Shown: positions 2,740-56,050 of the stretch, piece after piece
How positions within the stretch are numbered: the stretch's first letter is position 1
Layout of the letters: each line of letters starts with the position of its first letter
Source: Stegostoma tigrinum
Lineage: Eukaryota
Direction: 5' to 3'
DNA: 64,000 nt
Assembly (NCBI RefSeq): GCF_030684315.1
Contig: NC_081358.1
Location: 76,507,817 to 76,571,816, forward strand
Translations under genes and position numbers: made by a program
Notes under the pieces: generated by a model
What the model was told of the DNA's origin: nothing
Seen by the model: only the letters and a program-made list of their open reading frames with translations
Database searches by the model: none

Positions 2740-4625
2740 TAGGTAAACATGTCAGCAGTTTGACACATTCAAGAATGAAATAAGGAGTATACAGGGCCAA
2801 CATATTCCAATAAAGACAAAGAGTATGATGAACAAATCCTGTGAACCCTGGATACCAAGGGGGACACAGCATTGGATAAAGAGAAAAGTGGAGGCTTATG
2901 CCAGATATTGGGGGATCAAATCAGCAGATGCTCTATAGGAATCCAGAATGTGCAAGGGGAGACTTGAAAAGGAGAGAAAAAAGGTGCATGAAAAAATAAT
3001 GGTAGGCATATTAAAGGTAAAAGGATAACTAGGGAAAGAGTAGGGCACATTAACAACCACAGTGGTGATTTTTGTGTGGAACTGTAGGATGTAGGTAGGG
3101 TTTTAAGTGAATGTTTTGTATCAGTGTTCACTAGTGAGAGAGATGACGTGAGTATACAATCAGGAGAAGGATAGATATATTTAAAGAGTTTAACGTAGAC
3201 ACAGGGGTGGTTCTGAGTAGCCTGGCAGGCTTAAAAGTAGATAAATCTTCGGGACTGGAAGAAATGTATCTCAGGTTGTTAAGTGAGACAAGGGAGGAAA
3301 TAGCGGGAGTGTTGGCTATAATTGTTCCCTGGCTATAGGGGAGGTGCTAAAGGACAGCCAATGTGGACCAGTCAGTCTAACCTCAGTGTTGGGGAAACTA
3401 TTGGAAGTGATTGTGAGAGTCAAAATCAATCTATACTTGGTGAGGAAGAGTTTAGCCAGGAACAGGCAGCATGGTTTTGTTAAGGGCCAAACAACTTGTT
3501 TGAATTCTTCAAAGAGGTGACCAGGTGTGTAGATGAGGGCAATTTGATGTGGTCTACTTGGACTTCAGCAAGGCTTTTGAGAAGGCCCCACATGGGAGAC
3601 TGATAGCGAAGGTAAGACCCCAAGAAAATTTGACTAATTGGATCTGGAATTGGTTGAGTGGCAGGAAGCAGAGGATGATGGTCAAAGGGTATTTTTGTAA
3701 CAGAAAGCCTGTTTCTACTGGACTTCCATAGGGATCAGTGCGGTGGGCCTTGCTGTTTGTTTCATATATATATATAAATAATGTACACTTGGATGTAGAA
3801 GGACTGATCACTAAGTATGCGGATGTTATGAAAGTTGGTGGGCTGGTAAATAGGGAAAATAGTTGCCTTAGTTTACAGGAGAATTTAGATAGCTGGTTAG
3901 ATGGGCTGATCAGTGCCTAATGGAATTTAATCTGGAGAAGTGTGAACTTGGACAAGTGAAACAAACAAGGGAACACATAATGAACAGTGGGACCCTGGGA
4001 AGCACTGAGTATCAGTGTGCATGTCCACTGGCCCATTATGGTATCGGGACAGATGGACAAAGTGGTTCCGAAGGCGTGTGGGATATTTGTCTGTATTAGT
4101 CCAGACATAGAGTTTACGAACGGGAGAATATGCTTGAACTGTGTAAAATGTTGATTAGACCACATGTCAAGTATTTGTGCATTGTGGACTCCTCATTATC
4201 GGAAGAATGTGGCCGTGCTGGAGAGGGCGTGGAGCAGATTTGCCAGGATGTTGCCTAGACTTTTACTTCTGCAGAGAGATTGGATAGATTTGAGTTGTTT
4301 TCCTTGGCGGCAAGGGGGAGATTTGAGAGAGACTTATAAAATTAAGCGGGTTGGATGCACATAGATCAGAAGAAATTCTTCTCCTTAGTGCAGGGAACAT
4401 TCGTCAGAGGCATAGATGTACTGTAAGGGCCAAGAGGTTTATAGGGATCTGAGGAAGATGGTTTTCAGCCAGAGGATCATGAGGATCTGGAACTTAGTAT
4501 CTGTAAGGGCAGTAGGGGCAGAAATCCTCATAACAGTTAAACAGTGTTTATATGTCCACTTGTGATGGCAAGGCGTTACAAGGCTATTGGCCAAGAGCAG
4601 GAAGGTAGGATTACAATGGTAAGGT
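2740..4625 (+). mobile_element. Degraded CR1 LINE ORF2 and 3'UTR, interrupted by a PLE and resuming at 8220-8308
   Basis: VYLDFSKAFEKAPHGRL, KYADVMKVGG, WTPHYRKNVAVLERAW; 3'UTR continues after 8220 (gggccttttttctgtgctg..ctatgattcta). Confidence 0.9.
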
Positions 4626-4684
4626 AATAAAATGTGAAGCTGGATGAACATAGCAGGCCCAGCAGCATCTCAGGAGCACAAAAG

Positions 4685-4714
4685 CTGACGTTTCGGGCCT
4701 AGACCCTTCATCAG
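4685..4714 (-). ncRNA. Minimal type I hammerhead ribozyme motif in the PLE terminal repeat
   Basis: Minus strand reads CUGAUGA-A-GGGU(CUAG)GCCC-GAAACGUC-AG; intact core, ACGU palindrome as stem III, GUC site; stem I only about 2 bp. Confidence 0.7.
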
Positions 4715-4944
4715 AGAGGGGGATGGGGTGACGGTTCTAGAATAAATAGGGAGAGAGGGGGAGGCGGACTGAAGATGGAGAGAAAAGAAGATAGGTGGAG
4801 AGGAGAGTATAGGTGGGGAGGTAGGGAGGGGATAGGTCAGTCCAGGGAAGACGGACAGGTCAAGGAGGTGGGATGAGGTTAGTAGGTAGGAGATGGAGGT
4901 GCAGCTTGGGGTGGGAGGAAGGGATGGGTGAGAGGAAGAACAGG

Positions 4945-7830
4945 TTAGGGAGGCAGAGACAGGCTGGACTGGTTTTGGGATGCAGTGGGTGGAGGGGAAG
5001 AGCATGGCTGGTTGTGTGGTGCAGTTGGGGGAGGGGACGAACGGGGCTGGTTTTGGGATGCGTTGGGGGAAGGGGAGATTTTGAAGCTGGTGAAGTCCAC
5101 ATTGATACCATTGGGCTGCAGGGTTCCCAAGTTGAATATGAGTTGCTGTTCCTGCAACCTTCGGGTGGCATCATTGTGGCACTGCAGGAGGCCCATGATG
5201 GACATGTCATCTAGGGAATGGGAGGGGGAGTGGAAATGGTTCGCGACTGGGAGGTGCAGTTGTTTATTGCGAACCGAGCGGAGGTGTTCTGCAAAGCGGT
5301 CCCCAAGCCTCCGCTTGGTTTCCCCAATGTAGAGGAAGCCACACCGGGTACAATGGATACAGTATACCGCATTGGCAGATGTGCAGGTGAACCTCTGCTT
5401 AATATGGAATGTCATCTTGGGGCCTGGGATAGGGGTGAGGGAGGAGGTGTGGGGGCAAGTGTAGCATTTCCTGTGGTTGCAGGTGAAGGCGCCGGATGTG
5501 GTGGGGTTGGAGGGCAGTGTGGAGCGAACAAGGGAGTCACGGAGAGAGTGGTCTCTCCGGAAAGCAGACAAGGGTGGGGATGGAAAAATGTCTTGGGTGG
5601 TGGGGTCGGATTGTAGATAGCGGAAGTGTTGGAGGATGATACGTTGTATCTGGAAGTTGGTGGGGTGGTGTGTGAGAACGAGGGGGATCCTCTTTGGGCG
5701 GTTGTGGCGGGGGCGGGGTGTGAGGGATGTGTTGCGGGAAATGCGGGAGACGCGGTCAAGGGTGGGATGTACGGGAGTAGAATGCCTCATCATGGGAGCA
5801 GATGCGGCAGAGGCGGAGGAGTTGGGAATAAGGGATGGAATTTTTGCAGGAGGGTGGGTGGGAGGAGGTGTATTCTAGGTAGCTGTGGGAGTTGGTGGGC
5901 TTGAAATGGACATCAGTTACAAGCTGGTTGCCTAAGATGGAGACTGAGAGGTCCAGGAAGGTGAGGGATGTGCTGGAGATGGCCCATGTGAACTGAAGGT
6001 TGGGGTGGAAGGTGGTGGTGAAGTGGACGAACTGTTCGAGCTCCTCTGGGGAGCAAGAGGCGGCGGCGATACAGTCATCAATGTAACGGAGGACGAGGTG
6101 GTGTTTGGGGCCTGTGTAGGTGCGGAAGAGGGACTGTTCCACGTAACCTACAAAGAGGCAGGCATAGCTGGGGCCCATGCGGGTGCCCATGGCCACCACC
6201 TTAGTCTGTAGGAAGTGGGAAGAATAAAAAGAGAAGTTGTTGAGGGTGAGGACGAGTTCGGCTAGGCGGATGAGTGTGTCGGTGGAGGGAGACTGGTCGG
6301 GCCTGCGGGACAGGAAGAAGCGGAGGGCCTTGAGGCCATCTGCATGTGGAATACAGGTGTATAGGGACTGGACGTCCATGGTGAAGATGAGGTGTTGGGG
6401 GCCAGGGAATTGGAAGTTCTGGAGGAGGTGGAGGGCGTGGGTGGTGTCACGGACATAGGTAGGGAGTTCCTAGACCAAAGGGGAGAAAATGGAGTCCAGA
6501 TAGGTGGAGATGAGTTCGGTGGGGCAGGAACAGGCTGAGGCAATGGGTCGACCAGGGCAGGCAAGTTTGTGGATTTTGGGAAGGAGATAGAAACGGGCCG
6601 TGCGGGGTTGGGGAACAATGAGGTTGGAGGCTGTGGGTGGGAGGTCCCCTGAGGTGATGAATGGTGTTGGAGATGATGGTTTGGTCCTCAGGGGTGGGGT
6701 CATGATCAAGGGGGCAGTAGGAGGAGGTGTCAGAGAGTTGGCATTTGGCCTCAGCGTTGTAGAGGTCAGTGCGCCATACTACCACTGCGCCACCCTTGTC
6801 TGCGGGTTTGATCGTGAGGTTGGGGTTGGAGTGGAGAGAGCGGAGGGCTGCCCGTTCTGCAGGGGAGAGGTTGGAGTGGGTGAGAGGGGAGGAGAGGTTG
6901 AGGTGGTTGATGTCTCGATGGCAGTTGGAGATGAAGAGGTCGAGGGAGGGTAGGAGGCCTGGGGGTGGTGTCCAGGAGGAGGACTTGTGTTGGAAGCGGC
7001 GAAGGGGTCAGTGGAGGGAGGGTTAGGTTCCCGGTTAAAGAAGTAAGCGTGGAGGCGAAGGCGGCGGAAATACTGCTCTATGTCCAACCATGACTGGTAT
7101 TCGTTGATGTGTGGGCAGAGGGGGACAAAGGTGAGCCCCTTGCTGAGGACTGACTGTTCGTCCTCAGTCAGTGGGAGGTCTGCAGGGTTGGTGAAGATTC
7201 GGCAGGGCCCAGTGTGGCTGCCTCCTCTGGGGTTGCTGGCTGTGGAGGTTGTGGGCAGAGCGATGAGGTTGTCGGCCGTGGGCGGGGTTCCATCGACGGT
7301 GGGAGGAGCAGGGTAGGCGGCAACAGCGGCAGTGAGGGTGGTGTTTTTCGTGCTGTAACTGGAAGTGGAGGCGGTGACTGAAGCAGCGGTCGCGTCTGCG
7401 GTCCCAGAAGTGGCGTGCCTGGCGGTGGCGGATTTGACGTCATCGGCGGGGTCACCGGCCGTGTCCTCGTGGTCAATGGCGGCGGGTGCATGGTGGGGGT
7501 GGGGCAGGGACAGGTTCTGGGTTTGGGAGGTGCAGGAATCCTCTTGTAGGTGGCAGGGGCCAGTGAGTTTGTTGTACTTATGATTTTTGATGTCCATTAA
7601 AGCTCAGTAGAACTGGGTGTTCAGTCTGTGGATCCTGCGGAGGATAAAAAACAAGAGAGGTCCTTTGCAGGTTTGGGAGCGGGAGGCTCTGAGCTGGGGC
7701 AGGCTGGATTGCAGTGCCTGGAGGTGCCGGCGCATGGCTGCGAGTGTCTGTTTCAGGACTCGCAGGGAGAAACGCTTCTGAAGGGTCTGAATTTTCTGGG
7801 TGTAGAGGTGGTCACGGTTGGGGCCAAATT
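4945..7830 (-). pseudogene. PLE reverse transcriptase / GIY-YIG endonuclease ORF, frameshifted
   Basis: ORFs 6779-7597 (LSKGLTFVP), 6470-6709 (FYLLPKIHK..GRPI), 5756-6379 (MDVQSLYTCIP, AMGTRMGPSYA, RYIDD), 4945-5793 (CNHRKCYTC linker, VYCIHCTRCGFLYIGET). Confidence 0.93.
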
Positions 7831-7843
7831 GGGAAGGCTAGAA

Positions 7844-8219
7844 TGTCTCTGCCTCCCTAACCTGTTCTTCCTCTCACCCATCCCTTCCTCCCACCCCAAG
7901 CTGCACCTCCATCTCCTACCTACTAACCTCATCCCACCTCCTTGACCTGTCCGTCTTCCCTGGACTGACCTATCCCCTCCCTACCTCCCCACCTATACTC
8001 TCCTCTCTACCTATCTTCTTTTCTCTCCATCTTCGGTCTGCCTCCCCCTCTCTCCCTATTTATTCCAGAACCCTCACCCCATCCCCCTCTCTGATGAAGG
8101 GTCTAGGCCCGAAATGTCAGCTTTTGTGCTCCTGAGATGCTGCTGGGCCTGCTGTGTTCATCCAGCCTCACATTTCATTATCTTGGATTCTCCAGCATCT
8201 GCAGTTCCCATTAGCACTG
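7844..8219 (+). repeat. Inverted PLE pseudo-LTR copy with ~40-nt tail
   Basis: Reverse complement of 4626-4961 (about 9 mismatches in 336 nt by manual alignment), plus extra cttggattctccagcatctgcagttcccattagcactg. Confidence 0.92.
8091..8120 (+). ncRNA. Hammerhead ribozyme motif, inverted copy
   Basis: ctgatgaagggtctaggcccgaaatgtcag; core intact, ACGU changed to AUGU. Confidence 0.6.
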
Positions 8220-10065
8220 TTACAATGGTAAGGTGTTTCTTTTTGACTGGCACAGATTCGATTGGAAAAAGGGCCTTTTTTCTGTGCTGAAGATCTCTAT
8301 GATTCTAAAAGCAACAAGTATAGTGCTGTCTGGAAAATAGCTACTCACCAGGATGATTAATAGAACAGTTTATTTGTTTATTTATGCCACTGGTGTGTGT
8401 GTACTCTTTCAAGATGCCAATTGCTGTGGTGTTGGCTTTCATCATAGCTGTGAGTATTCTGTGCAACATCCTACAGTTGTGAAATTTGTTACATAAGTTC
8501 ACTCTTTTTATCCCCAATGTTCTGTGATCACCTCAGCATAATGGTTATCATGACCTTGCAATATTTGTTTCACTCGCTTAAAGGTAAATAAAATCCATTT
8601 CAGGATAGTTATTTGCTTTGTGCTAATTTTATCAAACTGAATATGCATTTCTTTTTGGTGAAATCATTTAATCACTTGGAATAATGCTGGTTGGGATGGG
8701 TATATTGTCCACATTCTCTTTTGTGAGTATTTGGGACTAGTTACCATTTAGAGTATCAACTACTTTGTGATGTTCCTTAGCTTTCTACCTGCTGTCTGTT
8801 TTAAGAACCTTACATCTTCTTTGACTGGTTATTACTGTACCAAAGTAATACCGAAAAAAATTCTTGCTGTTATGTTTCCTGTCTAGTTATAATGATTCCC
8901 AGTGTTCTTTACATGTGAAGGAAAGTGAAAAAGGTTTGTGTACCTTTTGAAAGTCAGACTGGCTGCCCTTGACATTAGCCCCTGTAAATATTTAACAGTG
9001 AGGAAATCAGTCTTACAGTACAGTACAGTGATCAGTCTTAATTTCAACTTACATATGCAATCACCATAACTCACTAATGTAAGTTTAAAATTCTACAAAT
9101 GAAGCCACCTCACTGAAACAGTTTAACTAACTGTCCACTTATGCAATGTGAGTGGTGATGATGTGACATGAGTAAACAAATAAATGTACGATCTGAGTAA
9201 TGTGTTATTCAAAGCCCCATTAAAGTTGCTGATTAAATTAAGTTTGAATTGCACTAGAATTGGCATAAATCCAAAACTATTGACTGACAGTAAAGCAAAC
9301 CATTAGATGCAGACAGACATGCAAGTGTTAGAATCCATTAACAGTTATTGATGCCAACACCATCTGGTCTAGTCTGATTTTCACTGTCACATTTAAACAA
9401 TGAATTTTAATAAAGTTACAATCAGGAACACGGATTCGAGAAGGATTCAGCTTCATAACAGAGTAATCTGCATGATTACTGAAGTGTAAAATATATGATA
9501 GAAACTAGAGTTCCTGGCCTACTATTATTGTTCATAAACTATGGCAAGGACAACAAGGAAAATAATTTTTACAAGCTCAAACTGAGTTGTTTAGCAAGGG
9601 TTCTAAGTTAATTAAGGGCAGAAAAAGGGAAGGTTATCCTATTAAATTTCTGATGTTTATATCATTAAATACAGTGAAGAATGTTTGTGTTTGTAAAGAC
9701 ATTAGCAACTATTAATATTTAAAGAAGCATTCTCAACGAAGTAAGCCAACATTTCTGGACTTGTGGGATATATACACATTCATCATGTGCATAGTGGTCA
9801 GTCTCTATCAATTTAACAAAAATCAAGCAAAGCAGAAAGGAAGTATAAGGAAATGACAACACTGCTGCACCGATTTCTTGTTCTAGATCCTTAAAACCAC
9901 AATTCCCTGAGATCCTTATGGAAACCATTAAAACCTCCTATTTATTTGTTTTGAAGACCATAAACTCCAAATTATTACAAATAGTTGTACCAGATAAAAG
10001 CTTAATGTGGTTTCAAGAGATTCCCGTATTCAGTGTTTCAATGGTACCAATAAATCGTTACTTTT

Positions 10066-13191: not shown

Positions 13192-13223
13192 CACAAGCTT
13201 TCAGGCTCTCACTCCTTCTTCAG
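13192..13223 (-). ncRNA. Hammerhead-like motif of the second PLE family
   Basis: Minus strand CUGAAGA-AGG(AGUGAGAG)CCU-GAAAGCUU-GUG; AGCU palindrome as stem III. Confidence 0.5.
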
Positions 13224-18574: not shown

Positions 18575-20001
18575 ACATAGAACGTTACATCACAGTACAG
18601 GCCCTTCGGCCCTCGATGTTGTGCCGACCTGTCATACCGATCTGAAGCCCATCTAACCTACACTATTCCATGTACGTCCATATGATCATCCAATGACAAC
18701 TTAAATGTACCTAAAGTTGGCAAATCTACAACCGTTGCAGGCAAAGCGTTCCATTCCCTTACTACTCTCTGAGTAAAGAAACTACTCTGACATCTGTCCT
18801 ATATCTTTCACCCCTCAATTTAAAGCTATGCTCCCTTGTGCTCGCCGTCACCATCCTAGGAAAAAGGCTCTCCCTATCCACTCTATCTAACCCTCTGATT
18901 ATTTTATATGTTTCAATTAAGTCACCTCTCAACTTTCTTCTCTCTAACGAAAACAGCCTCAAGTCCCTCAGCCTTTCCTCGTAAGACCTTCCCTCCATAC
19001 CAGGCAACATCCTAGTAAATCTCCTCTGCACCCTTTCCAAAGCTTCCACATCCTTCTTATAATGCAATGACCAGAACTGTACGCAATACTCCAAGTGTGG
19101 CCGCACCAGAGTTTTGTACAGCTGCAGCATAACCTCTTGGTTCCAGAACTCGATCCCTCCATTAATAAAAGCTAAAACACTGTATGCCTTCTTAACAGCC
19201 CTGTCAACCTGGGTGGCAACTTTCAAGGATCTGTGTACATGGACACCGAGATCTCTCTGCTCATCTACACTACTAAGAATCTTACCATTAGCCCAGTATT
19301 TTGCCTTCCGGTTACTCCTACCAAAGTGCATCACCTCACACTTGTCTGCATTAAACTCCGTTTGCCACCTCTCAGGCCAGCTCTGCAGCTTATCTATGTC
19401 TCTCTGCAACCTACAGCATCCTTCGTCACTATCCACAACTCCACCGACCTTAGTGTCGTCTGCAAATTTACTAACCCATCCTTCTACGCCCTCATCCAGG
19501 TCATTTGTAAAAATGACAAACAGCAGTGGACCCAACACCGACCCTTGCGGTACACCACTAGTAACTGGTCTCCAGGATGAACATTTCCCATCAACTACCA
19601 CCCTCTGCCTTCTTTAAGCAAGCCAATTTCCGAACCAAACTGCTATATCTCCCACAATTCCATTCCTCCGCATTTTGTACAATAGCCTACTGTGGGGAAC
19701 CTTATCGAACGCCTTGCTGAAATCCATATACACCACATCAACTGGTTTACTCTCATCTACCTGTTTGGTCACCTTCTCAAAGAACTCAATAAGGTTTGTG
19801 AGGCACGACCTACCGTGCTGACTATCCTGAATCAATTTATTCTTTTCTAGATGATTATAAATCCTATCCCTTATAACCTTTTCCAACACTTTACCAACAA
19901 CTGAGGTAAGGCTCACTGGTCTATAATTGCCAGGGTTGTCTCTACTCCCCTTCTTGAACAGGGGAACCACATTTGCTATCCTCCAGTTGTCTGGCACTAT
20001 T
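18575..20001 (-). mobile_element. Relatively young 5'-truncated CR1 LINE with RT domain
   Basis: ORFs 19614-19997 ([23 protein letters not shown]) and 18762-19601 (GVPQGSVLGP, KFADDTK, LVRPHLEYC); 3' end aacatagaac..ggcccttcggccc. Confidence 0.96.
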
Positions 20002-20097
20002 CACTGTTGCTGAATGTTATCAGGAGGTAGTTAGCATTTAGCAGATGAAGATCATTATATTAAATTAGACAGTAAAAGACATTTCACAGATGTAGAA

Positions 20098-20290
20098 ATA
20101 GTAGGAACTGCAGATGCTGGAGAATCTGAGATAACAAGGTGTAGAGCTGGATGAACACAGCAGGTCAAGCAGTATCTGAGAAGCAGGAAAGTTCACGTTT
20201 CAGGTCTGGACCCCTTTGAAATGTCAGCTTTCCTGCTCCTCTGATGCTACCAGGCCTGCTGTGTTCATATAGTTGTACACCTTGTTATCA
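20098..20290. mobile_element. Non-coding PLE-derived fold-back element with ~75-bp arms, tail and imperfect 14-bp TSD
   Basis: gataacaaggtgtagagctggatgaacacagcagg...cctgctgtgttcatatagttgtacaccttgttatc; centre ggtctggaccc is hammerhead stem II; tcacagatgtagaa (20084) vs tcacagaagtggaa (20288). Confidence 0.8.
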
Positions 20291-20571: not shown

Positions 20572-21330
20572 CTGAAGAAGGGTCCAGACCCAAAATGTCA
20601 GCTTTCCTGCTCCTCTGATGCTCCTTGGCCAGACTGGGTCTGCAGCTGGTGGTGAGGGAACCAACAAGAGGGAAAAACATACTTGACCTCATCCCTACCA
20701 AACCATCGGCTGCAGATGCATCTGGCCAGGACCGTATCAGTAAGAGTGACCATCGCACAGTCCTTGTGGAGACCAAGTCTCACCTTCACATTGAGATCAA
20801 TCTCCATTGTGATATGTGGCACTATCACCATGCTAAATGGGACAGACTTTGCACAAATCCAGCCACTCCAAGACTGGGCATCCATGAGGTGCTGTGGGCC
20901 ATCAACAGCAGCAAAATTGTACTCCAACACAATCTACAATCTCACGGCCTAGTATACCCCCTACTCACCATTACCATCAAGCCAGGGGATCAACCCTGGT
21001 TCAATGAAGAGTGCAGGACGACATGCCAGGAGCAGTACCAGGCATACCTGAAGATGAGGTATCAACCTGATGAAGCCACCAAACGGGGCTACTTGCATGC
21101 CAAACAGCGAAAGCAGCGCATGACAGACAGAGCTAAGCAATCCCACAACCAACAGATAAGATCTAATCTCTGCAGTCCTTCCACACTCAGCCATGAATGG
21201 TGGTGGACAATTAAACAACTCACTGGAGAAGGAGGATCCACAAATATCCCCATCCTCAATGATGGAAGAGCCTAGCACATCAACTGAAGGTTGCAAGTGG
21301 TGTTCATCCAGCTCTACACCTTGTTATCTT
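20572..21330 (+). mobile_element. PLE terminal fragment (20572-20630 plus 21299-21330) split by an internal LINE fragment
   Basis: ctgaagaagggtccagacccaaaatgtcagctttcctgctcctctgatgctccttggcc | insert | tgttcatccagctctacaccttgttatct. Confidence 0.75.
20631..21285 (+). pseudogene. Second LINE family ORF2 fragment: AP-endonuclease C-terminus and linker
   Basis: ORF 20625-21275: LQLVVREPTRGKNILDLI..SDHRTVLVE..KPGDQPWFNEEC..EWWWTIKQL. Confidence 0.88.
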
Positions 21331-24147: not shown

Positions 24148-27100
24148 TAACATGGACAATTGGGGCTCATTCTGGGGAAGGTGGGACCTCTACAAACAGG
24201 ACGGTCTCCACTTGAACCAGAGGGGCACTAATATCCTGGGTGGGAAATTTGCTAGTGCTATTCAGGTGGATTTAAACTAGCTCAGAAGGGGGATGGGAAA
24301 CTGAGGTGTAGTCCTAGTACACAGGAGGATGAGTGTAGGGAGGACATGGTCAGGACCTCACTGTCACAGGAGTGTGCTGGCAGACAGCAAGCTGGATTGA
24401 AGTGTGTCTACTTTAATGCCAGGAGTATCCGGAATAAGGTAGGTGAGCTTGCAGCTTGGAGAGGTACCTGGGACTTCGATGTTGTGGCCATTTCGGAGAC
24501 ATGGATAGAGCAGGGTCAGGAATGGATGTTGCAGGTTCCAGGGTTTAGATCTTTCATTAAGGTCAGGGAAGGTGGTAAAAGAGGGGGAGGTGTGGCTTTG
24601 TTGGTCAAGGACAGTATAACGGCGGCTGAAAGAACCTTTGAGGAGTCGTCTACTGAGGTGGTATGGGCTGAGGTTGCCGAGGAAGGTTTGTCGGCTGAGT
24701 CAGTATGGGTGGAAGTTAGGAACAGCAATGGAGCAGTCACCTCACTGGGGGTTTTCTACAGACCCCCAAATAGCAGTAAGGAGATCGAAGAACTCATAGG
24801 CCGGCAGATTGTTGAAAAGTGCAAGGTTGTTGTTATGGGTGACTTCAACTTTCCCAATATAGATTGGAACCTCCTTAGTGCAGATGGTTTGGATGGAGCC
24901 GTTTTTGTCAGGTGTGTTCAGAAGGGTTTCCTTACTCAGTATGTGGACAGGCTGACGAGGGGGGAGGCCATTTTGGATTTGGTGCTCGGCAATGAACCAG
25001 GACAGGTGTCAGATCTCGTGGTGGGAGAACACTTTGGCGACAGTGACCACAACAGCCTCACATTTACCATAGCCATGGAAAGGGAAAGGAGCAGTTACCA
25101 GGGGAAGATATTTAACTGGGGAAAAGGAAACTATGACGCTATCAGACAGGAGTTGGGAAGTACAGATTGGGAGCAATTGTTCCACAGAAAGGGCACAGCA
25201 GACATGTGGAGGCTGTTTAAGGAGCAGTTGTTGCAAGTGATGTATAAATTTGTTCCTCTGAGACAGGTAAGAAGGGGTAAAATTAAGGAGCCTTGGATGA
25301 CGGGTACAGAGGTGGTTCTTGTCAAAACGAAAAAGGCAGCTTATGTAAGGTGGAGGAAGCAAGGGTCTAGCACGGCTTTGGAGTATTACAGGCTTGCTTG
25401 GAAGGAGCTCAAAAGTGGACTGAGGAGGGCCAGGACAGCGCACGAAAAAGGCTTGGCAGGAAGGATTAGGGAGAACCCGAAGGCATTTTACTCATACGTG
25501 AGGAATAAGAGAATGATCAGGGAGAAGGGTAGGGCCAATCAGGGGTAGCGTAGGGAACTTGTGTGTGGAGTCTGAGCAGATAGGGGAAGCCCTAAATGAG
25601 TTTTTTGCTTCGGTTTTCACTAAGGAAAGGGACCTTGTTGTGAATGAGAACTTTGAGGAGCAGGAAAACAGGCTTGAACAGATCAAGATTGAGGAAGTTG
25701 ATGTGCTGGAAATTTTGGTAAACATTAAGATTGGTAAGTCCCCAGGGCCAGACCAGATTTATCCTAGGCTGCTCCGGGAAGCGAGAAAGGAGGTTGCTAA
25801 GCCGCTGGCAAAGATCTTTGCTTCCTCACTCTCCACGGGAGCCATACCAGAAGATTGGAGAGAGGCAAATGTTGTTCCTCTTTTCAAGAAAGAGAATAGG
25901 GAAATCCCTGGAAATTACAGACCAGTCAGTCTTATGTCTGTGGTCAGCAAGGTTTTGAAAAGAATTCTGAGGGATAGGATTTATGACTATTTGGAAACAT
26001 AGCGTGATTAAAGGGAGTCAGCATGGCTTTTTGAGGGGCCGATCATGCCTTACAAATCTTATTGAGTTCTTTGAGGAAGTCACGAGACAGGTTGACGAGG
26101 GTCAAGCAGTGGATGTGGTGTACATGGACTTCAGCAAGGCATTTGATAAGGTTCCCCACGGCAGGCTCATTCATAAAGTAAGGGGGTATGGGGTACAGGG
26201 TGATTTGGCTGTCTGGATTCAGAATTGGTTGGCTGACAGGAGGCAGAGAGTGGTTGTAGATGATAAATATTCTGCCTGGAGGTCAGTGCTGAGTGGTGTC
26301 CCGCAGGGCTCTGTTCTTGGGCCTCTGCTGTATGTAGTTTTTATAAATGACTTGGATGAGGAGGTTGAGGGGTGGGTTAGTATGTTTGCTGATGACACAA
26401 AGATTGGAGGTGCCGTTGATAGTATCGAGGGCTATTGCAGGCTTCAGCGAGACATTGACAGAATGCAGAGCTGGGCTGAGAAATGGCAGATGGAGTTCAA
26501 CCTGGATAAATGTGAAGTGATGCATTTTGGAAGGTTGAAATTAAATGCTGAATATAGGATTAAAGGCAGGATTCTCGGCAGTGTGGAGGAACAGCGGGAT
26601 CTTGGTGTTCAAGCGCATAGCTCCCTCAAAGTTGCCAACCAGGTGGATAAGGTTGTTAAGAAAGCATATGGTGTTTAGGCTTTCATTAACAGGGGGATCA
26701 AGTTTAAGAGCCATGAGGTTATGCTGCAGCTGTACAAAACCCTGGTGAGACCAGACTTGGAATATTGTGTCCAGTTCTGGTCGCCCTATTATAGGAAAGA
26801 TGTGGAGGCTTTGGAGACGGTGCAAAGGAGGTTTAGCAGGATGCTGCCTGGATTGGAGGGCTTGTCTTATGAGGAGAGGTTGACTGAGCTCGGACTTTTC
26901 TCTCTGGAGAGAAGGAAGAAGAGAGGTGACCTGATCGAGGTGTACAAGGTAATGTGAGGCATGGATAGAGTCGATAGCCAGAGACTTTTCCCCAGGTCAG
27001 GATTGACTGCCACGAGAGGTCATAGTTTTAAGGTGTTAGGAGGAAGGTATAGAGGAGAGGTCAGAGGGAGATTCTTTCCCCAGAGAGTTGTGAGTGCATG

Positions 27101-27940: not shown

Positions 27941-30492
27941 CCTTTCTTTAAGGCTAAAGTGGATTTATTATCTTCTGTTGAAGTTAATTGGGCATTGCAG
28001 AGAGATTCCACCAGCAAAAGGCATTGATGTGCCCTCAGATTTTTACTGTCTTCCCCGGTCATGCAAATAATTCCATCTTCAGGATCTATGCACTGATCTC
28101 TCACCTGGAGACAAGACAATAGGGGTCTCTGTGCTCATAAAGCCAAGCACATAAATTTTGGATTGAATATTTTTAAATCTGAAGGTAATCCCCCAAGGAC
28201 AATATTGTATTTGGATTTGCTCAAAATCTCTAATTAAGAGGAAGAAAATGAAAATGTGGTATTTGAAAGAAAGGCAATAAAATGAGTCATTTGATTTATT
28301 TTGTTCTACGTACCTTTTTATCATTTAACTTTCTCATTTCACATTTATGTTAGTGTTAACTAGAAAAAAAAGAGACTGTAAACACATGGGAGGGTATTAC
28401 ACAATGTTTCATGCATTCATTCAAAATTCTTCGCTATTATTTTAGCGCTGATAATTTTTTTAGACCAAGACATTGAGCTTTTGATTAATAGTATGACATA
28501 GGTAAGACCAATGAACTGTGAAACAAATGAAGTCGGATATTCTTCCTGATATTACAAGATGGCTATAATCTTCCAAGAGGATCTCTAGCCTTCTGTGACT
28601 TAGAGGAAGTATTTTAATCAAATTTATACAAAACATAATTCAAAGATATGTGGAGCATTTTAAAAGTATGTTTCATTTTTCAAATGAAAAACAAGTTTAG
28701 CTTCATAAAAATGAAAATGAAATTTTGTATGTCAGAATAGTGTTTGGATGAGCAAGCACCTTGTGTGAGTGAAAATGAATAAACTTTGCTATGCCTTATG
28801 GCAGGTTGCACACTTATACTCTCTGCAGGGAAGAAGGGACCTAATCTAAAAAAAAATCAGTGTTTAATTGAGTTGAGGAAAATCCAAAGGAGACAATTAT
28901 TTTCTTTCCTCAAACATTCAGCAATATCAAACATAAATGTCTGGCTTCGACTGAAATAAATAATTCAATTTCATTTCCTCTAAAGAACAAGTCTGTTTCA
29001 CTCACATTACATTGCATGCTTATCAAAAGTTAATGGCATGGGTTGTATCAATCATGCATGGTGATGGAAGGTCATTTATGGCACATGTGATATTAAGAAT
29101 ATTGCATGTGAAAATGATAAAAAAAAATTGGTGTATATAGAATTTATCATGCAATAATGAAATTGGTCTGCATTTCTACCACTGAAAATTTAACATCTGT
29201 AAAATATTTATTGGTTTAAAAGTACTTCTCAAATCTTAGGTGGAACTCAGTTATGATTTGGCATCATTGAGAAGTGTTACTTCAGATAAATCAGTTGACA
29301 TAAAAAAGGATTTTGCTGATTTCCTAAAACTTTATTTAAATTTTTTTCTGTTTCGGTCGAATGAGGCCCATCTTGTTGGAGTCATCTTGCCCTGAATTTA
29401 TACTGCATGACTTGTCTATTTCTAACTTCTCACCCCTAGGTTATTAACCCATTGATAAGACGCCAATTGCAACTTTGACTGAATTTTTGCAGCTTCTGAA
29501 GAACAGATGATAAAATATGGTGAGAACAAAAGAACATGAGATTCTCAACCAGGAAAGCAAAGTATTAATAATGAGACGTGAGTCCCACTAGTGAATGACA
29601 GGAACCTACTTTACATATTAACATCTCATCAACACCTAATTGCATCTCATTTATATACAGTTCGCCTTTTACCAGGCAGTGGAGCGAAGCTAGGTGGTGA
29701 TATTTCTAAACGTGGAGGTTTGAGAGGGTACCTTTCGGCTGAAACCTATATGGACAGCTATATGGATGTTATATGGACAGTGACTACCTGCATCCTTTCT
29801 TCATGAAGGTTGGCATCAGAAACAAATCAACCTGACCACATCGCTGGCACATCTTTGGCTCACTTCACTTTGCAGCAAACTGACACCTTTCATTTTAATA
29901 TTACTGCTTGGCAACTTTGCACACAGGGACAGGCCATTTTGTGTGTTGCTGCTTCACTTAGAACTTACATGCTCATAATACCTGCATCTTTCTTTGCCTT
30001 TTAGCAAGCACTAAGTGGAATAGCTTGAGTAGTTGTCAGCAATGGTTAGTCAAAGTGGTAGGCATGTTACTGTATGGCACCGTGCCATGTCAATGTCACA
30101 CCCATAGCATGTGCCAGCAGCTTACCTTGGTAAGCAAATTGCATGTGCTTCAAGCAAATGGCCACAGCTCTAAGTTTAAGGTGAGTAGTTTTCAGTTAAG
30201 GGGAACTGTTTCCAGTCAGGCTCTTGGACATGGTCAATCAGCCACTGGGATAGTCAGGGACAGGAGTTCCATTATCACCACTGTCCAAGAAGTGGATCAC
30301 TGTCAGTTTTGAAAGTCAAATACAATAAATCAAGGGATTACTGATAATTCAACTGGGAAGCTGCACAGACATCAGTCAAGGGTCTGGTATTCATCAGCCA
30401 ATGTCAGTCGGCTAGGTGAATTCTAAGGTTGTGCTCATTGAAAGTCAAAGGGGTTTATCAAGGGCCATCACTGCGGCACAAAAGGTGAAGAT

Positions 30493-31726
30493 AACAAAGT
30501 GTGTAGCTGGATGACCACCGCAGGCAAAGCAGCATCTCAGGAGCACAAAAGCTGATGTTTTGGGCCTAGACTGAGTGAAGGTGTTCTGCAAAGCAGTCCC
30601 CAAGCCTCCGCTTGGTTTTCCCAATGTAGAGGAAGCCACACCGGGTACAATGGATACAGTATACCACATTGGCAGATGTGCAGGTGAACATCTGCTTAAT
30701 ATGGAAAGTCATCTTGGAGTCTGGGATGGGGGTGAGGGAGGAGGTGTGGGGTCAAGTGTAGCACTTCCTGCAGTTGCAGGGGAAGGTGCCGGGTGTGGTG
30801 GGGTTAGAGGGCAGTGTGGAGTGGACAAGGGAGTGAAGGAGAGATTGGTCTCTCCGCAAGGCAGACAAGGGTGGGGATGGAAAAATGTCTTGGGTGGCGG
30901 ATTAAGAATCCCCCTTCTTCTCACATACCACCCCACCAACCTCCAGATACAACGCATCATCCTCCAACACTTCCGCCATCTACAATCTGACCCCACCACC
31001 CAAGACATTTTTCCATCCCCACCCTCGTCTGCCTTGCGGAGAGATCACTCTCTCCTTGACTCCCTTGTCCCCACACCTCCGCTCCATTCGCAATAAACAA
31101 CTGCACCTCCCATTTTAACTCCCCATCCCATTCCCTAGATGACATGTCCATCATGGGCCTCCTGCAGTGCCACAATGATGCCACCCGAAGGTTGCAGGAA
31201 CAGCAACTCATATTCCGCTTGGGAACCCTGCAGCCCAATGGTATCATTGTGGACTTCACAAGCTTCAAAATCTCCCCCTCCCCCACTGCATCCCAAAACC
31301 AGCCCAGCTTGTACCCTCCCCCCACTGCATCACAAAACCAGCCCAGCTCGTCCCCGCCTCCCTAACCTGTTCTTCCTCTCACCTATCCCCTCCTCCCACC
31401 TTAAGCCACACCTCCATTTCCCACCTACCAACCTCATCCCGCCTCCTTGACCTGTCTGTCCTCCCCGGACTGACCCATCCCCTCCCCAGCTCCCCACCTA
31501 AACTCTCCTCTCCACCTATCTTCTCCTCTATCCATCTTTGGTCCACCTCCCCTCTCTCCCTATTTATTTCAGAACGGTCTTTCCATCCCCCTCTCTAATG
31601 AAGGGTCTAGGCCCGAAACGTCAGCTTTTGTGCTCCTGAGATGCTGCTTGGCCTGCTGTGTTCATCCAGCTTCACACTTTGTTATCTTGGATTCTCCAGG
31701 ATCTGCAGTTCCCATTATCTCTGATC
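30493..31726. mobile_element. Internally deleted fold-back PLE of family 1: minus arm 30493-30903, plus arm 30904-31726
   Basis: GIY-YIG region antisense at 30575-30900, then sense RIPLLLTYHPTNLQ..MSIMGLLQCHND, pLTR and tail; acaaaaggtgaagat (30478) vs accaaagttgaagat (31727). Confidence 0.9.
31595..31624 (+). ncRNA. Hammerhead motif with G5-to-A core mutation, likely inactive
   Basis: ctaatgaagggtctaggcccgaaacgtcag. Confidence 0.5.
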
Positions 31727-34249: not shown

Positions 34250-35660
34250 AACATAGAACATAGAACAGTACAGCACAGAACAGGCCCTTCAGCCCATGAT
34301 GTTGTGCCGACCATTGATCCTCATGTATGCACCCTCAAATTTCTGTGACCATATGCATGTCCAGCAGTCTCTTAAATGTCCCCAATGACCTTGCTTCCAC
34401 AACTGCTGCTGGCAATGCATTCCATGCTCTCACAACTCTCTGTGTAAAGAACCCGCCTCTGACATGCCCTCTATACTTTCCTCCAACCAGCTTAAAACTA
34501 TGACCCCTCGTGTTAGCCATTTCTGCCCTGGGAAATAGTCTCTGGCTATCAACTCTACCTATGCCTCTCATTATCTTGTATACCTCAATTAGGTCCCCTC
34601 TCCTCCTCCTTTTCTCCAATGAAAAGAGTCCGAGCTCAGTCAACCTCTCTTCATAAGATAAGCCCTCCAGTCCAGGCAGCATCCTGGTAAACCTCCTCTG
34701 AACCCTCTCCAAAGCATCCACATCTTTCCTATAATAGGGTGACCAGAACTGGACGCAGTATTCCAAGTGCGGTCTAACCAAAGTTTTATAGATCTGCAAC
34801 AAGATCTCACGACTCTTAAACTCAATCCCCCTGCTAATGAAAGCCAAAACACCATATGCTTTCTTAACAACCCTGTCCACTTGGGTGGCCATTTTCAGGG
34901 ATCTATGTATCTGCACACCAAGATCCCTCTGTTCCTCCACACTGCCAAGAATCCTATCCCCTCACCCAAGTCATTAATAAAAATTACAAACAGTAGAGGC
35001 CCAAGGACAAAGCCCTGTGGAACACCACTCACCACTGACTTCCAGGCAGAATATTTTCCTTTTACTACCACTCGCTGTCTTCTGATGGCCAGCCAATTCT
35101 GTATCCAGACAGCTAAGTTCCCCTGTATCCCATTCCTCCTGACCTTCTGAATGAGCCTACCATGGGGAACCTTATCAAATGTCTTACTGAAGTCCATATA
35201 CACCACATCCACAGCTCGACCCTCATCAACTTTTCTAGTCACATCCTCAAAGAACTCGATAAGGTTTGTGAGGCATGACCTGCCCCTCACAAAGCCGTGT
35301 TGACTGCATTTAATCAAGCCATGCTCTTCCAGATGGTCATAAATCCTATCCCTCAGAATCCTTTCTAACACCTCGCAGATGACAGACGTGAGACTTACTG
35401 GTCTGTAATTGCCGGGGATTTCCCTATTTCCTTTCTTGAAGAGAGGAATTACATTTGCCTCTCTCCAGTCCTCAGGTACAACTCCAGTGGAGAGCGAGGA
35501 TGCAAAGATCTTCGCAAGTGGCGAAGCAATTGCATTTCTCATTTCCCAAAGCAGCCGAGGACAAATCTGGTCCGGGCCTGGGGACTTGTCAATCTTAATG
35601 TTTGACAAAATTTTCAGCACATCAGCTTCCTCTATCTCTGTCCATTCCAGCATGCACACC
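34250..35660 (-). mobile_element. 5'-truncated CR1 with the RT catalytic segment deleted
   Basis: ORFs 34895-35665 and 34335-34940; INDLGEGI joins directly to ILGSVEEQ; catagaacatagaac terminus. Confidence 0.96.
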
Positions 35661-37438
35661 TGCACTGAATGTAGCCAACACTAGGCCAATCACATTGATG
35701 ATAATCGTGTCTAAACGCAATCTAAATATTTGCTCCTAAATGAATCACCAAAGGCCCTCTTCAAAGCAGATACATTTACAAAATGCTCAACTGAAAGTTG
35801 AACTGGCAAAACCAGAAATATTCATTGCTGACATTGATTGTAAAACAAAATGTTGACATTTCTTTGTGGGAGTGCTTTGTGCTGGCATATGGAATAATAC
35901 TGTGGAATGACAAATAAATTCCTCTTTGCGAGCATTGAATACAGCACCATGATCACCAAGAATGATCAAAGAGGAATCCATATGTTGTGTTAGACTACCA
36001 TTTGTAGTCATGCATCCCTGTTTCTTGGCACTGTTCTGCAATGTCTTAGCTATACAACTATTCAGCTTTCGTAAAGGTCAGTGATGGATTAAGATGCATG
36101 TTCCCATATAAGCTTTTGAAATTTTTGTTCCCATCCTTGTGACATCCTATTAAAGTTGCACCGTTGTATGCCAAGCAGGCAAAATAAGAACCATCAGCAA
36201 TCTAGATTCAAGCAAATGTTCAACAATGTAAAGTTGTATTGAGGGTCAGCAATATTCATCACAATACCATGATTTGACAAATGTTGGAACTTGATAGAAA
36301 ACACAATTGAATGTTTCAATATCTGAAGGAAATTTTGCAGTTGTGTGCACACTAGGAAGCAAATGTTATTATCTTGGAGGCATTTGATTTAAACTCAAAC
36401 TAATCCTTTGTAACAACTGCAGAAATAATTGTAGCAAGGACAGCGATACCCCAAGGAGGGGGGAGGCAGAAGATGGAGGAGGTTTCTCTTAAATTTGTTT
36501 GAGCTCCCTTCTAGTTATAAGCTGAAACTAGCAAAGTGCCATTTCATTTGTTTTTTGATAATCTTTCACTTTTCTCATTGTGGGGAAAAAAACAGAGCTC
36601 TTGTACCGCTCTTTAATCTGGGAATGTTATTGAGCTGATTTGGACACAGTTCTTGTTTATTTGTTTCTCCAAATATACTGCTTCATAGTCAGGATGTGCT
36701 TATTTGAACGTTGCATTAATTTGAAGAACAAATCTAAACATGATCCAGTGACACTTACAAATTGCTGCTTTGTCCATGAACATTGAAGTAATATCTCCAT
36801 CTCCAGCATCTGGCAGTGGATACTTGTTTAATTCACAGGTATGCCTTCAATATCTCTCCTTACAGCACTGCATTGATATTGAGACAAAACATTGCAGTAA
36901 TAATTAAATACCAGCAGTTCTCAGACTGTTGCTTCAAATCTGTTCGACGTCAAAATGAATGACAGTTGCAGGGCATGTGATGAAAAATTTCATGGAAAAT
37001 GGCAGGATGGCTACTCCTGACCATTTCTGAGAAACCCGCTTTAGTTTTAAGTTTAATGTCATGTAAATGTTATGTGCATGCCCAGTCAATAGATCCTGAT
37101 GTCAGCTAGAATCTAATATTTAAATAATACACAAATTGCCATTTTCAACTTCACTGCTCCAGCAAGTGCACTGTCTTAAACATGAACTCGGCATGAACGT
37201 GCATTCAATAACTCAGAGATACGCCATTTAAAGTTTGATTTCTTTGTAGAACTTCGTATGAGTTGCAAGATGTTGGAAACATTGAGTGTTAGACCTTGTT
37301 TTCTCATTTCTCTACTTCTTACCTCTCGGCTTGCTTAAAATCTTTTTTCAATTTTTTTTTCTAGGGCTAGATTTAAAACCATGTCAAACACCTTTGGCCT
37401 AATGCACTGAATATAGCCAACATTAGGCCAATCACATT
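35661..37438 (+). repeat. Pair of 36-bp direct repeats (35661-35696 and 37403-37438)
   Basis: tgcactgaatRtagccaacaYtaggccaatcacatt, 2 mismatches. Confidence 0.9.
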
Positions 37439-44542: not shown

Positions 44543-44986
44543 AGTGGTAATGGGAACTGCAGATGCTGGAGAATCCAAGATAACAAAGTGTGAAGCTGGA
44601 TGAACACAGCAGGCCAAGCAGCATCTCAGGAGCACAAAAGTTGACGTTTCGGGCCTAGACCCTTCATCAGAGAGGGGGATGGGGAGAGGGAACTGGAATA
44701 AATAGGGAGAGACGGGGAGGCAGACCAACGATGGAGAGGAAACAAGATAGGTAGACAGGAGCGTATAGGTGGGGAGGTAGGGAGGGAATAGGTCAGTCCA
44801 GAGAAGATGGACAGGTCAAGGAGGCGAGATGAGGTGGTAGGTAGGAAATGGAGGTGCGGCTTGGGGTGGGAGGAAGGGATGGGTGAAAGGAAGAACAGGT
44901 TAGGGAAGCAGAGACAGGCTGGGCTGGTTTTGGGATGCAGTGGGGGGAGGGGATGAGCTGGGTTGGTTTTGTGATGCAGTGGGGGT
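44543..44986 (-). mobile_element. Solo PLE family-1 pseudo-LTR with tail
   Basis: Near-identical to 4626-5030 and includes the tail gggaactgcagatgctggagaatccaag. Confidence 0.92.
44641..44670 (-). ncRNA. Hammerhead ribozyme motif with intact core
   Basis: Minus strand CUGAUGAAGGGUCUAGGCCCGAAACGUCAA. Confidence 0.62.
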
Positions 44987-55956: not shown

Positions 55957-56050
55957 ATATAACACAATGTGGAGCTGAGGAACATAGCAGGCCAGAAAGC
56001 ATCAGAGGAGCAGGAAAGTTGATTTTTCAGGTTGGAACCCTTCTTCAGAA
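55957..56050 (-). mobile_element. Short PLE terminal fragment with hammerhead-like core
   Basis: Minus strand CUGAAGAA-GGGU(UCCA)ACCU-GAAAAAUC-aactttcctgctcctctgatgc. Confidence 0.7.

Follow-up and report, generated by a model that had tools for sequence, protein, structure and literature searches.

The hammerhead motif and its host element

The window, by which we mean the whole 64,000-nucleotide stretch of Stegostoma tigrinum DNA analysed here, carries on its minus strand a minimal type I hammerhead motif (4685..4716), of which the 30 nt from 4714 to 4685 match exactly those given in an earlier, sequence-only reading. Parts and positions are named according to the standard hammerhead numbering scheme: the 5′ strand of stem I lies at 4716-4715, CUGAUGA at 4714-4708, an extra A at 4707, stem II at 4706-4703/4698-4695 with a 4-nt loop, GAAA at 4694-4691, the palindromic stem III at 4691-4688, C17 at 4687 and the 3′ strand of stem I at 4686-4685, so that cleavage would be expected after GUC, between 4687 and 4686. 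For the comparison of copies, offsets are counted from C3 as 0 (window 4714), which puts the core at 0..6, the extra A at +7, stem II at +8..+19, GAAA at +20..+23 and the predicted cut between +27 and +28 (4687/4686). The motif has the CUGANGA ... GAAA ... UH core of its class, an extra nucleotide between A9 and G10.1 and a short helix I; it is a real motif of a known kind, in a dead copy.

The motif lies on the sense strand of what we read, from its anatomy, as a dead, 5′-truncated Penelope-like element (PLE) of the Neptune type, in its 3′ pseudo-LTR (pLTR; 4626..4970, minus strand, tail excluded, delimited as an inverted repeat), which bears out the earlier placement in a PLE terminal repeat. 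The 3.6-kb insertion is flanked by a perfect 15-bp target-site duplication (TSD; 4611..4625 and 8220..8234, 100% identical) and has inverted arms of 350 nt: the inverted pLTR (7835..8184, plus strand) is 96% complementary to the 3′ pLTR and a 35-nt tail (8185..8219, plus strand) is found on this distal arm only. The remaining features, all on the minus strand, are a frameshifted N-terminal ORF part (6447..7834), a reverse transcriptase (RT) core (5756..6469; PF00078, E 6.4e-07) and a Cx4CxxC linker with a GIY-YIG endonuclease (4945..5874; PF01541, E 0.00089, below the curated cut-off). The linker fits the CX2-5CxxC class between RT and endonuclease, and such a linker before GIY-YIG is a trait of Neptune and Nematis PLEs (PMC8557442). 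The element (4626..8219) is truncated about 361 nt downstream of the full element's hammerhead, without a start codon or 5′ pLTR, and is dead because the truncation removes the start codon at +166. As the hammerhead at 8091 is on the opposite strand, the copy at 4714-4685 has no partner in the same transcript. Three 39-nt tandem units (4949-5076) lie at the end of the PLE ORF.

The element has a single ORF with RT and C-terminal GIY-YIG, the frame being open from the start codon through the RT in locus L036, one of the fuller copies elsewhere in the genome. In these fuller copies the hammerhead is present in the 5′ repeat too, 166 nt upstream of the ORF start. Direct or inverted pLTRs, a tail at one end and a TSD are all present in the element family. 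Among the 15 loci of fuller copies that reach +17, five end at −12..+17 and ten extend into a further unit in tandem upstream. An upstream ORF of 27 codons (+46..+129 from C3), in the frame of the main ORF and ending in UGA at the tail end, is also present in L036 and other fuller copies; this stop is found in 15/16 loci and is missing in one older copy. Subfamilies with N7 = U, and no others, have a 13-codon ORF that begins within the core of the hammerhead.

The other copies listed in the sequence-only reading fared differently. The copy in the inverted pLTR (8091..8120, plus strand) is present but is not identical, C15.2 to U having broken the stem III palindrome, and the copy at 44641..44670 (minus strand) is of the same family with an intact core but carries G1.2 to A. 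The copy correctly given as mutated lies on the plus strand (31595..31624) and has G5 changed to A. Two of the related cores are older-subfamily copies, one of which (20572..20601, plus strand) begins at C3 and has N7 = A but is damaged by G12 to A, while the other, from 56048 (56021..56048, minus strand), has lost the stem III palindrome with its CG. The third, claimed at about 20195-20215, does not hold up: this is a short inverted pair of older pLTR stubs (20094..20268) joined within stem II, and the piece begins within stem II without CUGANGA. Another pLTR stub (30488..30571, minus strand) also begins within stem II. A hammerhead of a different family (family C, below) with a G15.2-C16.2 palindrome at 13195..13223 (minus strand) was absent from the earlier list. 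The window also holds LINE-like endonuclease/RT ORF pieces (18762-19613, 24256-26678, 34335-35680 and 20619-21275), which we take to be CR1-like. A match to Rfam MIR1437 (30858-31035) was below threshold and was rejected, the long perfect hairpin there being the inversion junction of another PLE copy.

Abundance and dispersal

Exact matches to a 28-mer of the motif number 92,176 in the 3.2-Gb genome and a reversed control gives 0. More detailed counts come from a sample of 1.564 Mb, made up of the window and 150 stretches, each 10 kb long, drawn from 15 contigs, in which a structure-aware de novo scan returned 146 minimal hammerheads against 1 in the reversed sequence, 139 of the 146 having one extra nucleotide after A9. 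The core is intact in 75 of the 174 copies that cover it, or about 48 per Mb, which extrapolates to about 150,000. A partner on the same strand was found within 200 nt for 0/184 hammerhead-bearing copies and within 1 kb for 11/184, and retrozyme-type tandem arrays were rejected on these counts. The motif had been described as a high-copy self-cleaving RNA; the high copy number is amply confirmed, but ‘self-cleaving’ is an overstatement given that the core shows no extra conservation (see below), that the copy at 4714-4685 lacks a same-strand partner and that copying went beyond the cut site in 155/164 young arms reaching it. A rare natural tandem, two exact same-strand hammerheads 59 bp apart (G000:C1:2722793 and 2722852), was present among 100 matches listed and, to judge from its arrangement, could form a dimer in cis. 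Identical insertions at regular spacing in G000:C14:30.03-30.09 Mb (L204-L209) reveal a threefold repeat of a unit about 24 kb long.

Conservation within family A and covariation between families

In total 392 terminal-repeat pieces were gathered by their downstream part only, and the 310 that were long enough were clustered on downstream letters only. Every core letter except N7 and H17 is the majority letter in 6/6 subfamily clusters, in an alignment that is projected onto one reference and hence biased towards it; the letters that do vary among the clusters are N7 (U, A or G) and H17 (C or U), together with those of the loop and of one pairing partner in stem II, U-G alternating with U-A at the fourth pair of that stem. 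The closing pair G10.1-C11.1, which was not prescribed in this count, is G-C or G-U in 236/260. The core is the majority sequence in all six clusters, but it is not uniquely conserved within this lineage (family A) because several downstream pLTR motifs are equally invariant. Selection on single copies was rejected, as non-CpG core changes (23/915) compared with downstream changes (62/3,942) differ in the wrong direction (p 0.067), and G12, a CpG site, is changed in 7/91 copies. Conservation is at the level of the family, and single copies decay neutrally.

Comparison of family A with two further families, B and C, supplied the covariation that had been called for, with stems I, II and III all covarying (base pairs were counted by script, and the raw counts ignore phylogeny). 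In stem I, pair 2.1-1.1 is U-A in 53/57 family A copies, A-U in 6/6 of family B and C-G in 11/19 of family C, and pair 2.2-1.2 is C-G in A and B and A-U in C, both positions having been left free in the search. In stem III, pair 15.2-16.2, likewise left free, is C-G in A and B and G-C in C, giving the palindrome ACGU or AGCU. It should be noted that the three-family count required G and C at 10.1-11.1 and is uninformative for that pair. Families A, B and C have a stem I of 2, 3 and 3-4 bp, respectively, with different pairs; the earlier estimate of about 2 bp stands, as the third position is paired in only 3/57 intact young copies of family A, and stem III in this family is palindromic and loopless. 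Family B (L061:2085-2130, L062:1893-1938 and others) has an extra U and a 6-bp stem II. Family C (window 13195-13223, minus strand; L211-L230) has the AGCU palindrome and a variable stem II, and its pattern gives 908 matches genome-wide with 0 in the control. Weak GIY-YIG similarity lies just upstream of the hammerhead in 2/15 family B loci and 1/20 family C loci.

Predicted folding

Folding predictions for the 32-nt monomer give a rod in which CUGAUG is paired with CGUCAG above stem II (−11.0 kcal/mol), with a stem I probability of 0.000. With nearest-neighbour energies, which ignore tertiary contacts, the cleavage-competent dimer is at −4.5 kcal/mol, whereas two rods reach −22.0 and the best duplex −37.2. 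In longer contexts the probability of the rod ranges from 0.01 to 0.70 depending on the ends, while that of stem I remains 0.000. N7 = A makes the rod weaker, and a rod of this kind is absent from families B and C. An active monomer fold or a longer stem I was sought and was found neither in the predictions nor in the copies. These energies agree with the weak dimer activity of minimal hammerheads in vitro (PMC4209133) and with the cleavage of an anole PLE hammerhead only in the presence of the element's protein (PMC11167929). The suggestion that cleavage needs a dimer or a protein thus gains support from the inactive rod and from the anole precedent (PMC11167929), and by this analogy, with the monomer predicted to be an inactive rod, a protein helper is likely.

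Insertion ends at the front edge of the hammerhead

In a family of about a hundred thousand young copies, the ends of insertions provide a base-resolution read-out of the RNA templates. From 335 mapped pieces, the 213 with at least 88% identity to a reference were kept and 11 duplicates were dropped, leaving 202 young arms. The 3′ ends of these arms lie at about +91 or +127 and the tail is on exactly one arm in 50/53 inverted pairs, a pattern that matches the two RT start sites reported for the anole element (PMC11167929). Of the 5′ ends, 78/140 fall at −8..+8 and then 1/62 at −40..−9; for copies joined directly to genomic DNA, 24/68 end at −8..+8. Genome-wide, with patterns that demand three non-matching letters ahead of a given position, there are 5,151 apparent starts at −1 versus 50 at −12, where the −12 pattern is longer and stricter than that for −1 at an estimated cost of about twofold. 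Front-edge copies hold the whole hammerhead, and therefore their templates were uncut. Together with the location of PLE promoters in the pLTR (PMC2377424), these ends suggest that the RNA of the element starts at the front edge of the hammerhead; an alternative for the pile-up is that the RT is released once past the hairpin. Cleavage was rejected as the origin of the majority of short copies, since these start at −8..+8, and splicing was rejected because the copies ending here have no upstream exon in common and the acceptor-like AG near −23 shows no peak. No obvious front-edge pile-up was seen in 15 family B and 20 family C loci.

A run of G precedes the −1 junction in part of the listed matches, which may be a copied cap or may stem from the partner arm in inverted orientation. 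Among the short inverted pairs of the 1.564-Mb sample, the ends of both arms lie no more than 2 nt apart in 13/39 cases versus 5.1 expected (p 0.001), as if both arms had copied one RNA end or one arm had folded back.

Insertion ends at the predicted cut site

A second set of ends coincides with the first base past the predicted cut. There are 3,740 apparent starts at +28 in the genome, compared with 567 at +30 and 246 at +26, the latter figure being an upper bound in which true junctions and small indels are counted together. On inspection 28/30 of the +28 loci were true junctions, as against 8/15 of the +30 loci. The 30 loci at +28 are mostly inverted joins, with three head-to-tail joins, two joins to genomic DNA with a 7-9 bp duplication and one unclear case; no Tx1 LINE was seen at any of the 30. 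Mirror joins centred just after the cut, at an AGCU palindrome, number 727, compared with 53 at the neighbouring upstream ACGU, 24 at a downstream GGCC and 23 at the blunt centre +34, and AAA, the mark of mirror joins at the 4-nt palindrome, precedes 64 of 100 listed +28 matches. When the microhomology classes are removed, about 10/30 loci are left, which is still roughly a fourfold excess.

Several results weigh against cleavage as the origin of this peak. In the sample, the end density per base at +33..+38 (16/180) nearly equals that at +27..+29 (9/164); the predicted rod has its 3′ foot at the very position of the cut (+28..+29), where pausing of the RT could give a similar peak; and stem I is shorter in family A than in B and C, which could mean that activity has been lost. 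Starts at +28 were found in 0/68 young copies joined to genomic DNA and in 0/29 elements that hold the ORF start. With these points taken into account, we lean slightly towards the reading that the insertion starts at +28, which occur by the thousand, record germ-line cleavage of a minimal PLE hammerhead with a 2-bp stem I in a few percent of the reverse-transcribed RNA, while the other short copies map the 5′ end of the RNA to the front edge. If the peak does reflect cleavage, then cleavage would be a minor side path rather than the main route of transposition. Roughly one in five of the +26 matches listed (those beginning CTC) resembles a precise loss of the hairpin, as if the RT had skipped the hammerhead, a resemblance that is drawn from three letters.

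Interpretation and alternatives

The account that we consider probable is that this is a minimal hammerhead in the pLTR of a young Neptune-type PLE, dead in the copy studied here, and that cutting of the RNA of active elements, after GUC, takes place just occasionally and in a dimer that is assisted by protein. Two hammerheads, from both pLTRs of one transcript or from two transcripts, would pair through the ACGU palindrome to form stem III, and as the monomer would be held in the inactive rod the element's protein would be needed for refolding. Reverse transcription would begin 64-100 nt downstream of the cut site and would mostly copy uncut RNA, often leaving the template at the hammerhead's front edge, the probable start of the RNA; a few percent of the templates would already have been cut, and their copies would begin at the first base past the cut.

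It is less likely, though it deserves serious weight, that the motif of the young subfamily no longer cuts and has been retained for a structural or protein-binding role, or through recent descent, in which case the +28 peak would come from RT stalling at the base of the CUGAUG/CGUCAG rod together with palindrome-assisted joining. A stem I of just 2 bp, the dominance of the rod in short RNA (probability 0.93-1.00) and the predominance of mirror joins among the +28 matches all fit such a loss, as do the success of Naiad PLEs, which thrive without hammerheads (PMC8557442), and the finding that mutating the hammerhead leaves insertion in vitro unaffected (PMC11167929). However, an RT arriving from downstream first meets the rod at +30, and yet the peak is at +28 (3,740 versus 567), the ACGU palindrome five bases upstream yields 14 times fewer mirror joins, and the catalytic letters are fixed while N7 and H17 vary between subfamilies.

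Efficient cutting as a normal step that frees or circularizes the element RNA, with most copies being live ribozymes, is improbable. Such a model was put forward in PMC4209133, and it would accommodate both the density of intact cores (75/174, about 48 per Mb) and the 3/30 loci at +28 in which a head-to-tail join restarts at the cut, as from ligated or circular RNA, but it is hard to reconcile with the 155/164 young arms copied beyond the cut site, with the neutral decay of copies, which extends to G12 (7/91), and with the scarcity of same-strand partners (0/184 within 200 nt and 11/184 within 1 kb). That the match to a hammerhead is a coincidence, the letters of the repeat being fixed for other reasons, can be dismissed: within the window the Rfam hammerhead covariance models are silent (no match at E ≤ 1) and a loose pattern gives 4 matches versus 1.31 expected, a count only marginally above shuffles (2/100 of which reach 4), but the scan of the sample gave 146 versus 1, and three otherwise dissimilar families have only the core in common and keep all three stems with different pairs.

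The motif itself is ordinary for PLEs, and what merits further work is the indirect hint of infrequent cleavage in vivo, together with an RNA 5′ end at the edge of the hammerhead. For PLE hammerheads in general, evidence of cleavage in vivo is described as absent in PMC4209133, and PMC8557442 describes their function as unclear.

Comparison with known systems

Minimal hammerheads in the pLTRs of metazoan PLEs, including Neptune, Poseidon and Xena of fish, were described by Cervera and De la Pena (2014; PMC4209133). The sequence-only reading had flagged the extra core A and the very short stem I; neither is new, since that paper already describes a nucleotide between 9 and 10.1, with a viroid precedent, and a 2-bp helix I in D. 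virilis. The motif studied here shares with those hammerheads the type I arrangement, the lack of a loop 3, the palindromic 15.2-16.2, the extra nucleotide between 9 and 10.1, the G10.1-C11.1 pair and a short helix I, and also the occurrence mostly as single dispersed copies or as pairs on opposite strands. It differs in having a stem II of 4 bp, compared with 6-8 bp, and in its exact copy number of 92,176, compared with about 4,000 in the coelacanth and about 9,000 in X. tropicalis. In the parts of that paper drawn on here, no cartilaginous fish is named and there is no analysis of insertion ends. Small PLE-linked variants that have a diminished stem III, as here, and that cleave as dimers were described by Lunse, Weinberg and Breaker (2017; via PMC6765202); that work may already list the present sequence family, and a prior listing of this hammerhead family is quite possible. 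Our literature search turned up no account of PLE hammerheads in sharks or of PLE copies whose start coincides with the cut site.

A parallel is offered by PAc, a Poseidon element of the anole with a hammerhead whose cleavage depends on the protein of the element (Frangieh et al. 2024; PMC11167929). Here as in PAc the hammerhead lies at the junction of pLTR and ORF, uncut RNA is the main RT template and two RT start sites about 35 nt apart account for an optional tail. In PAc, however, the ORF begins in stem II, whereas in the present Neptune-type element it begins 166 nt past C3. The authors of PMC11167929 saw no sign of cleavage in vivo and found no RNA-seq reads that end at the cut, in contrast to the insertion ends that peak at the cut in the present genome. 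With the endonuclease-bearing PLEs of the Neptune clade (PMC8557442, PMC3846280) the family has in common 5′ truncation, an adjacent inverted pLTR, a TSD, partial tandems, a tail of 30-40 bp at one end and CX2-5CxxC before GIY-YIG; in the corresponding sections of these two papers no pile-up of 5′ ends is reported at the front edge of the hammerhead or at the cut site.

One cartilaginous fish is among the genomes with hammerhead repeats in a 2026 preprint (bioRxiv 10.64898/2026.07.22.740005). The animal non-LTR retrozymes (PMC7229834 and the same preprint), proposed to derive from PLE pLTRs, also have type I hammerheads and reach a similar copy number, up to 120,000 in the axolotl. Retrozymes are tandem arrays of 50-1000 bp units, whereas the copies of family A are dispersed or inverted, without a close partner on the same strand.
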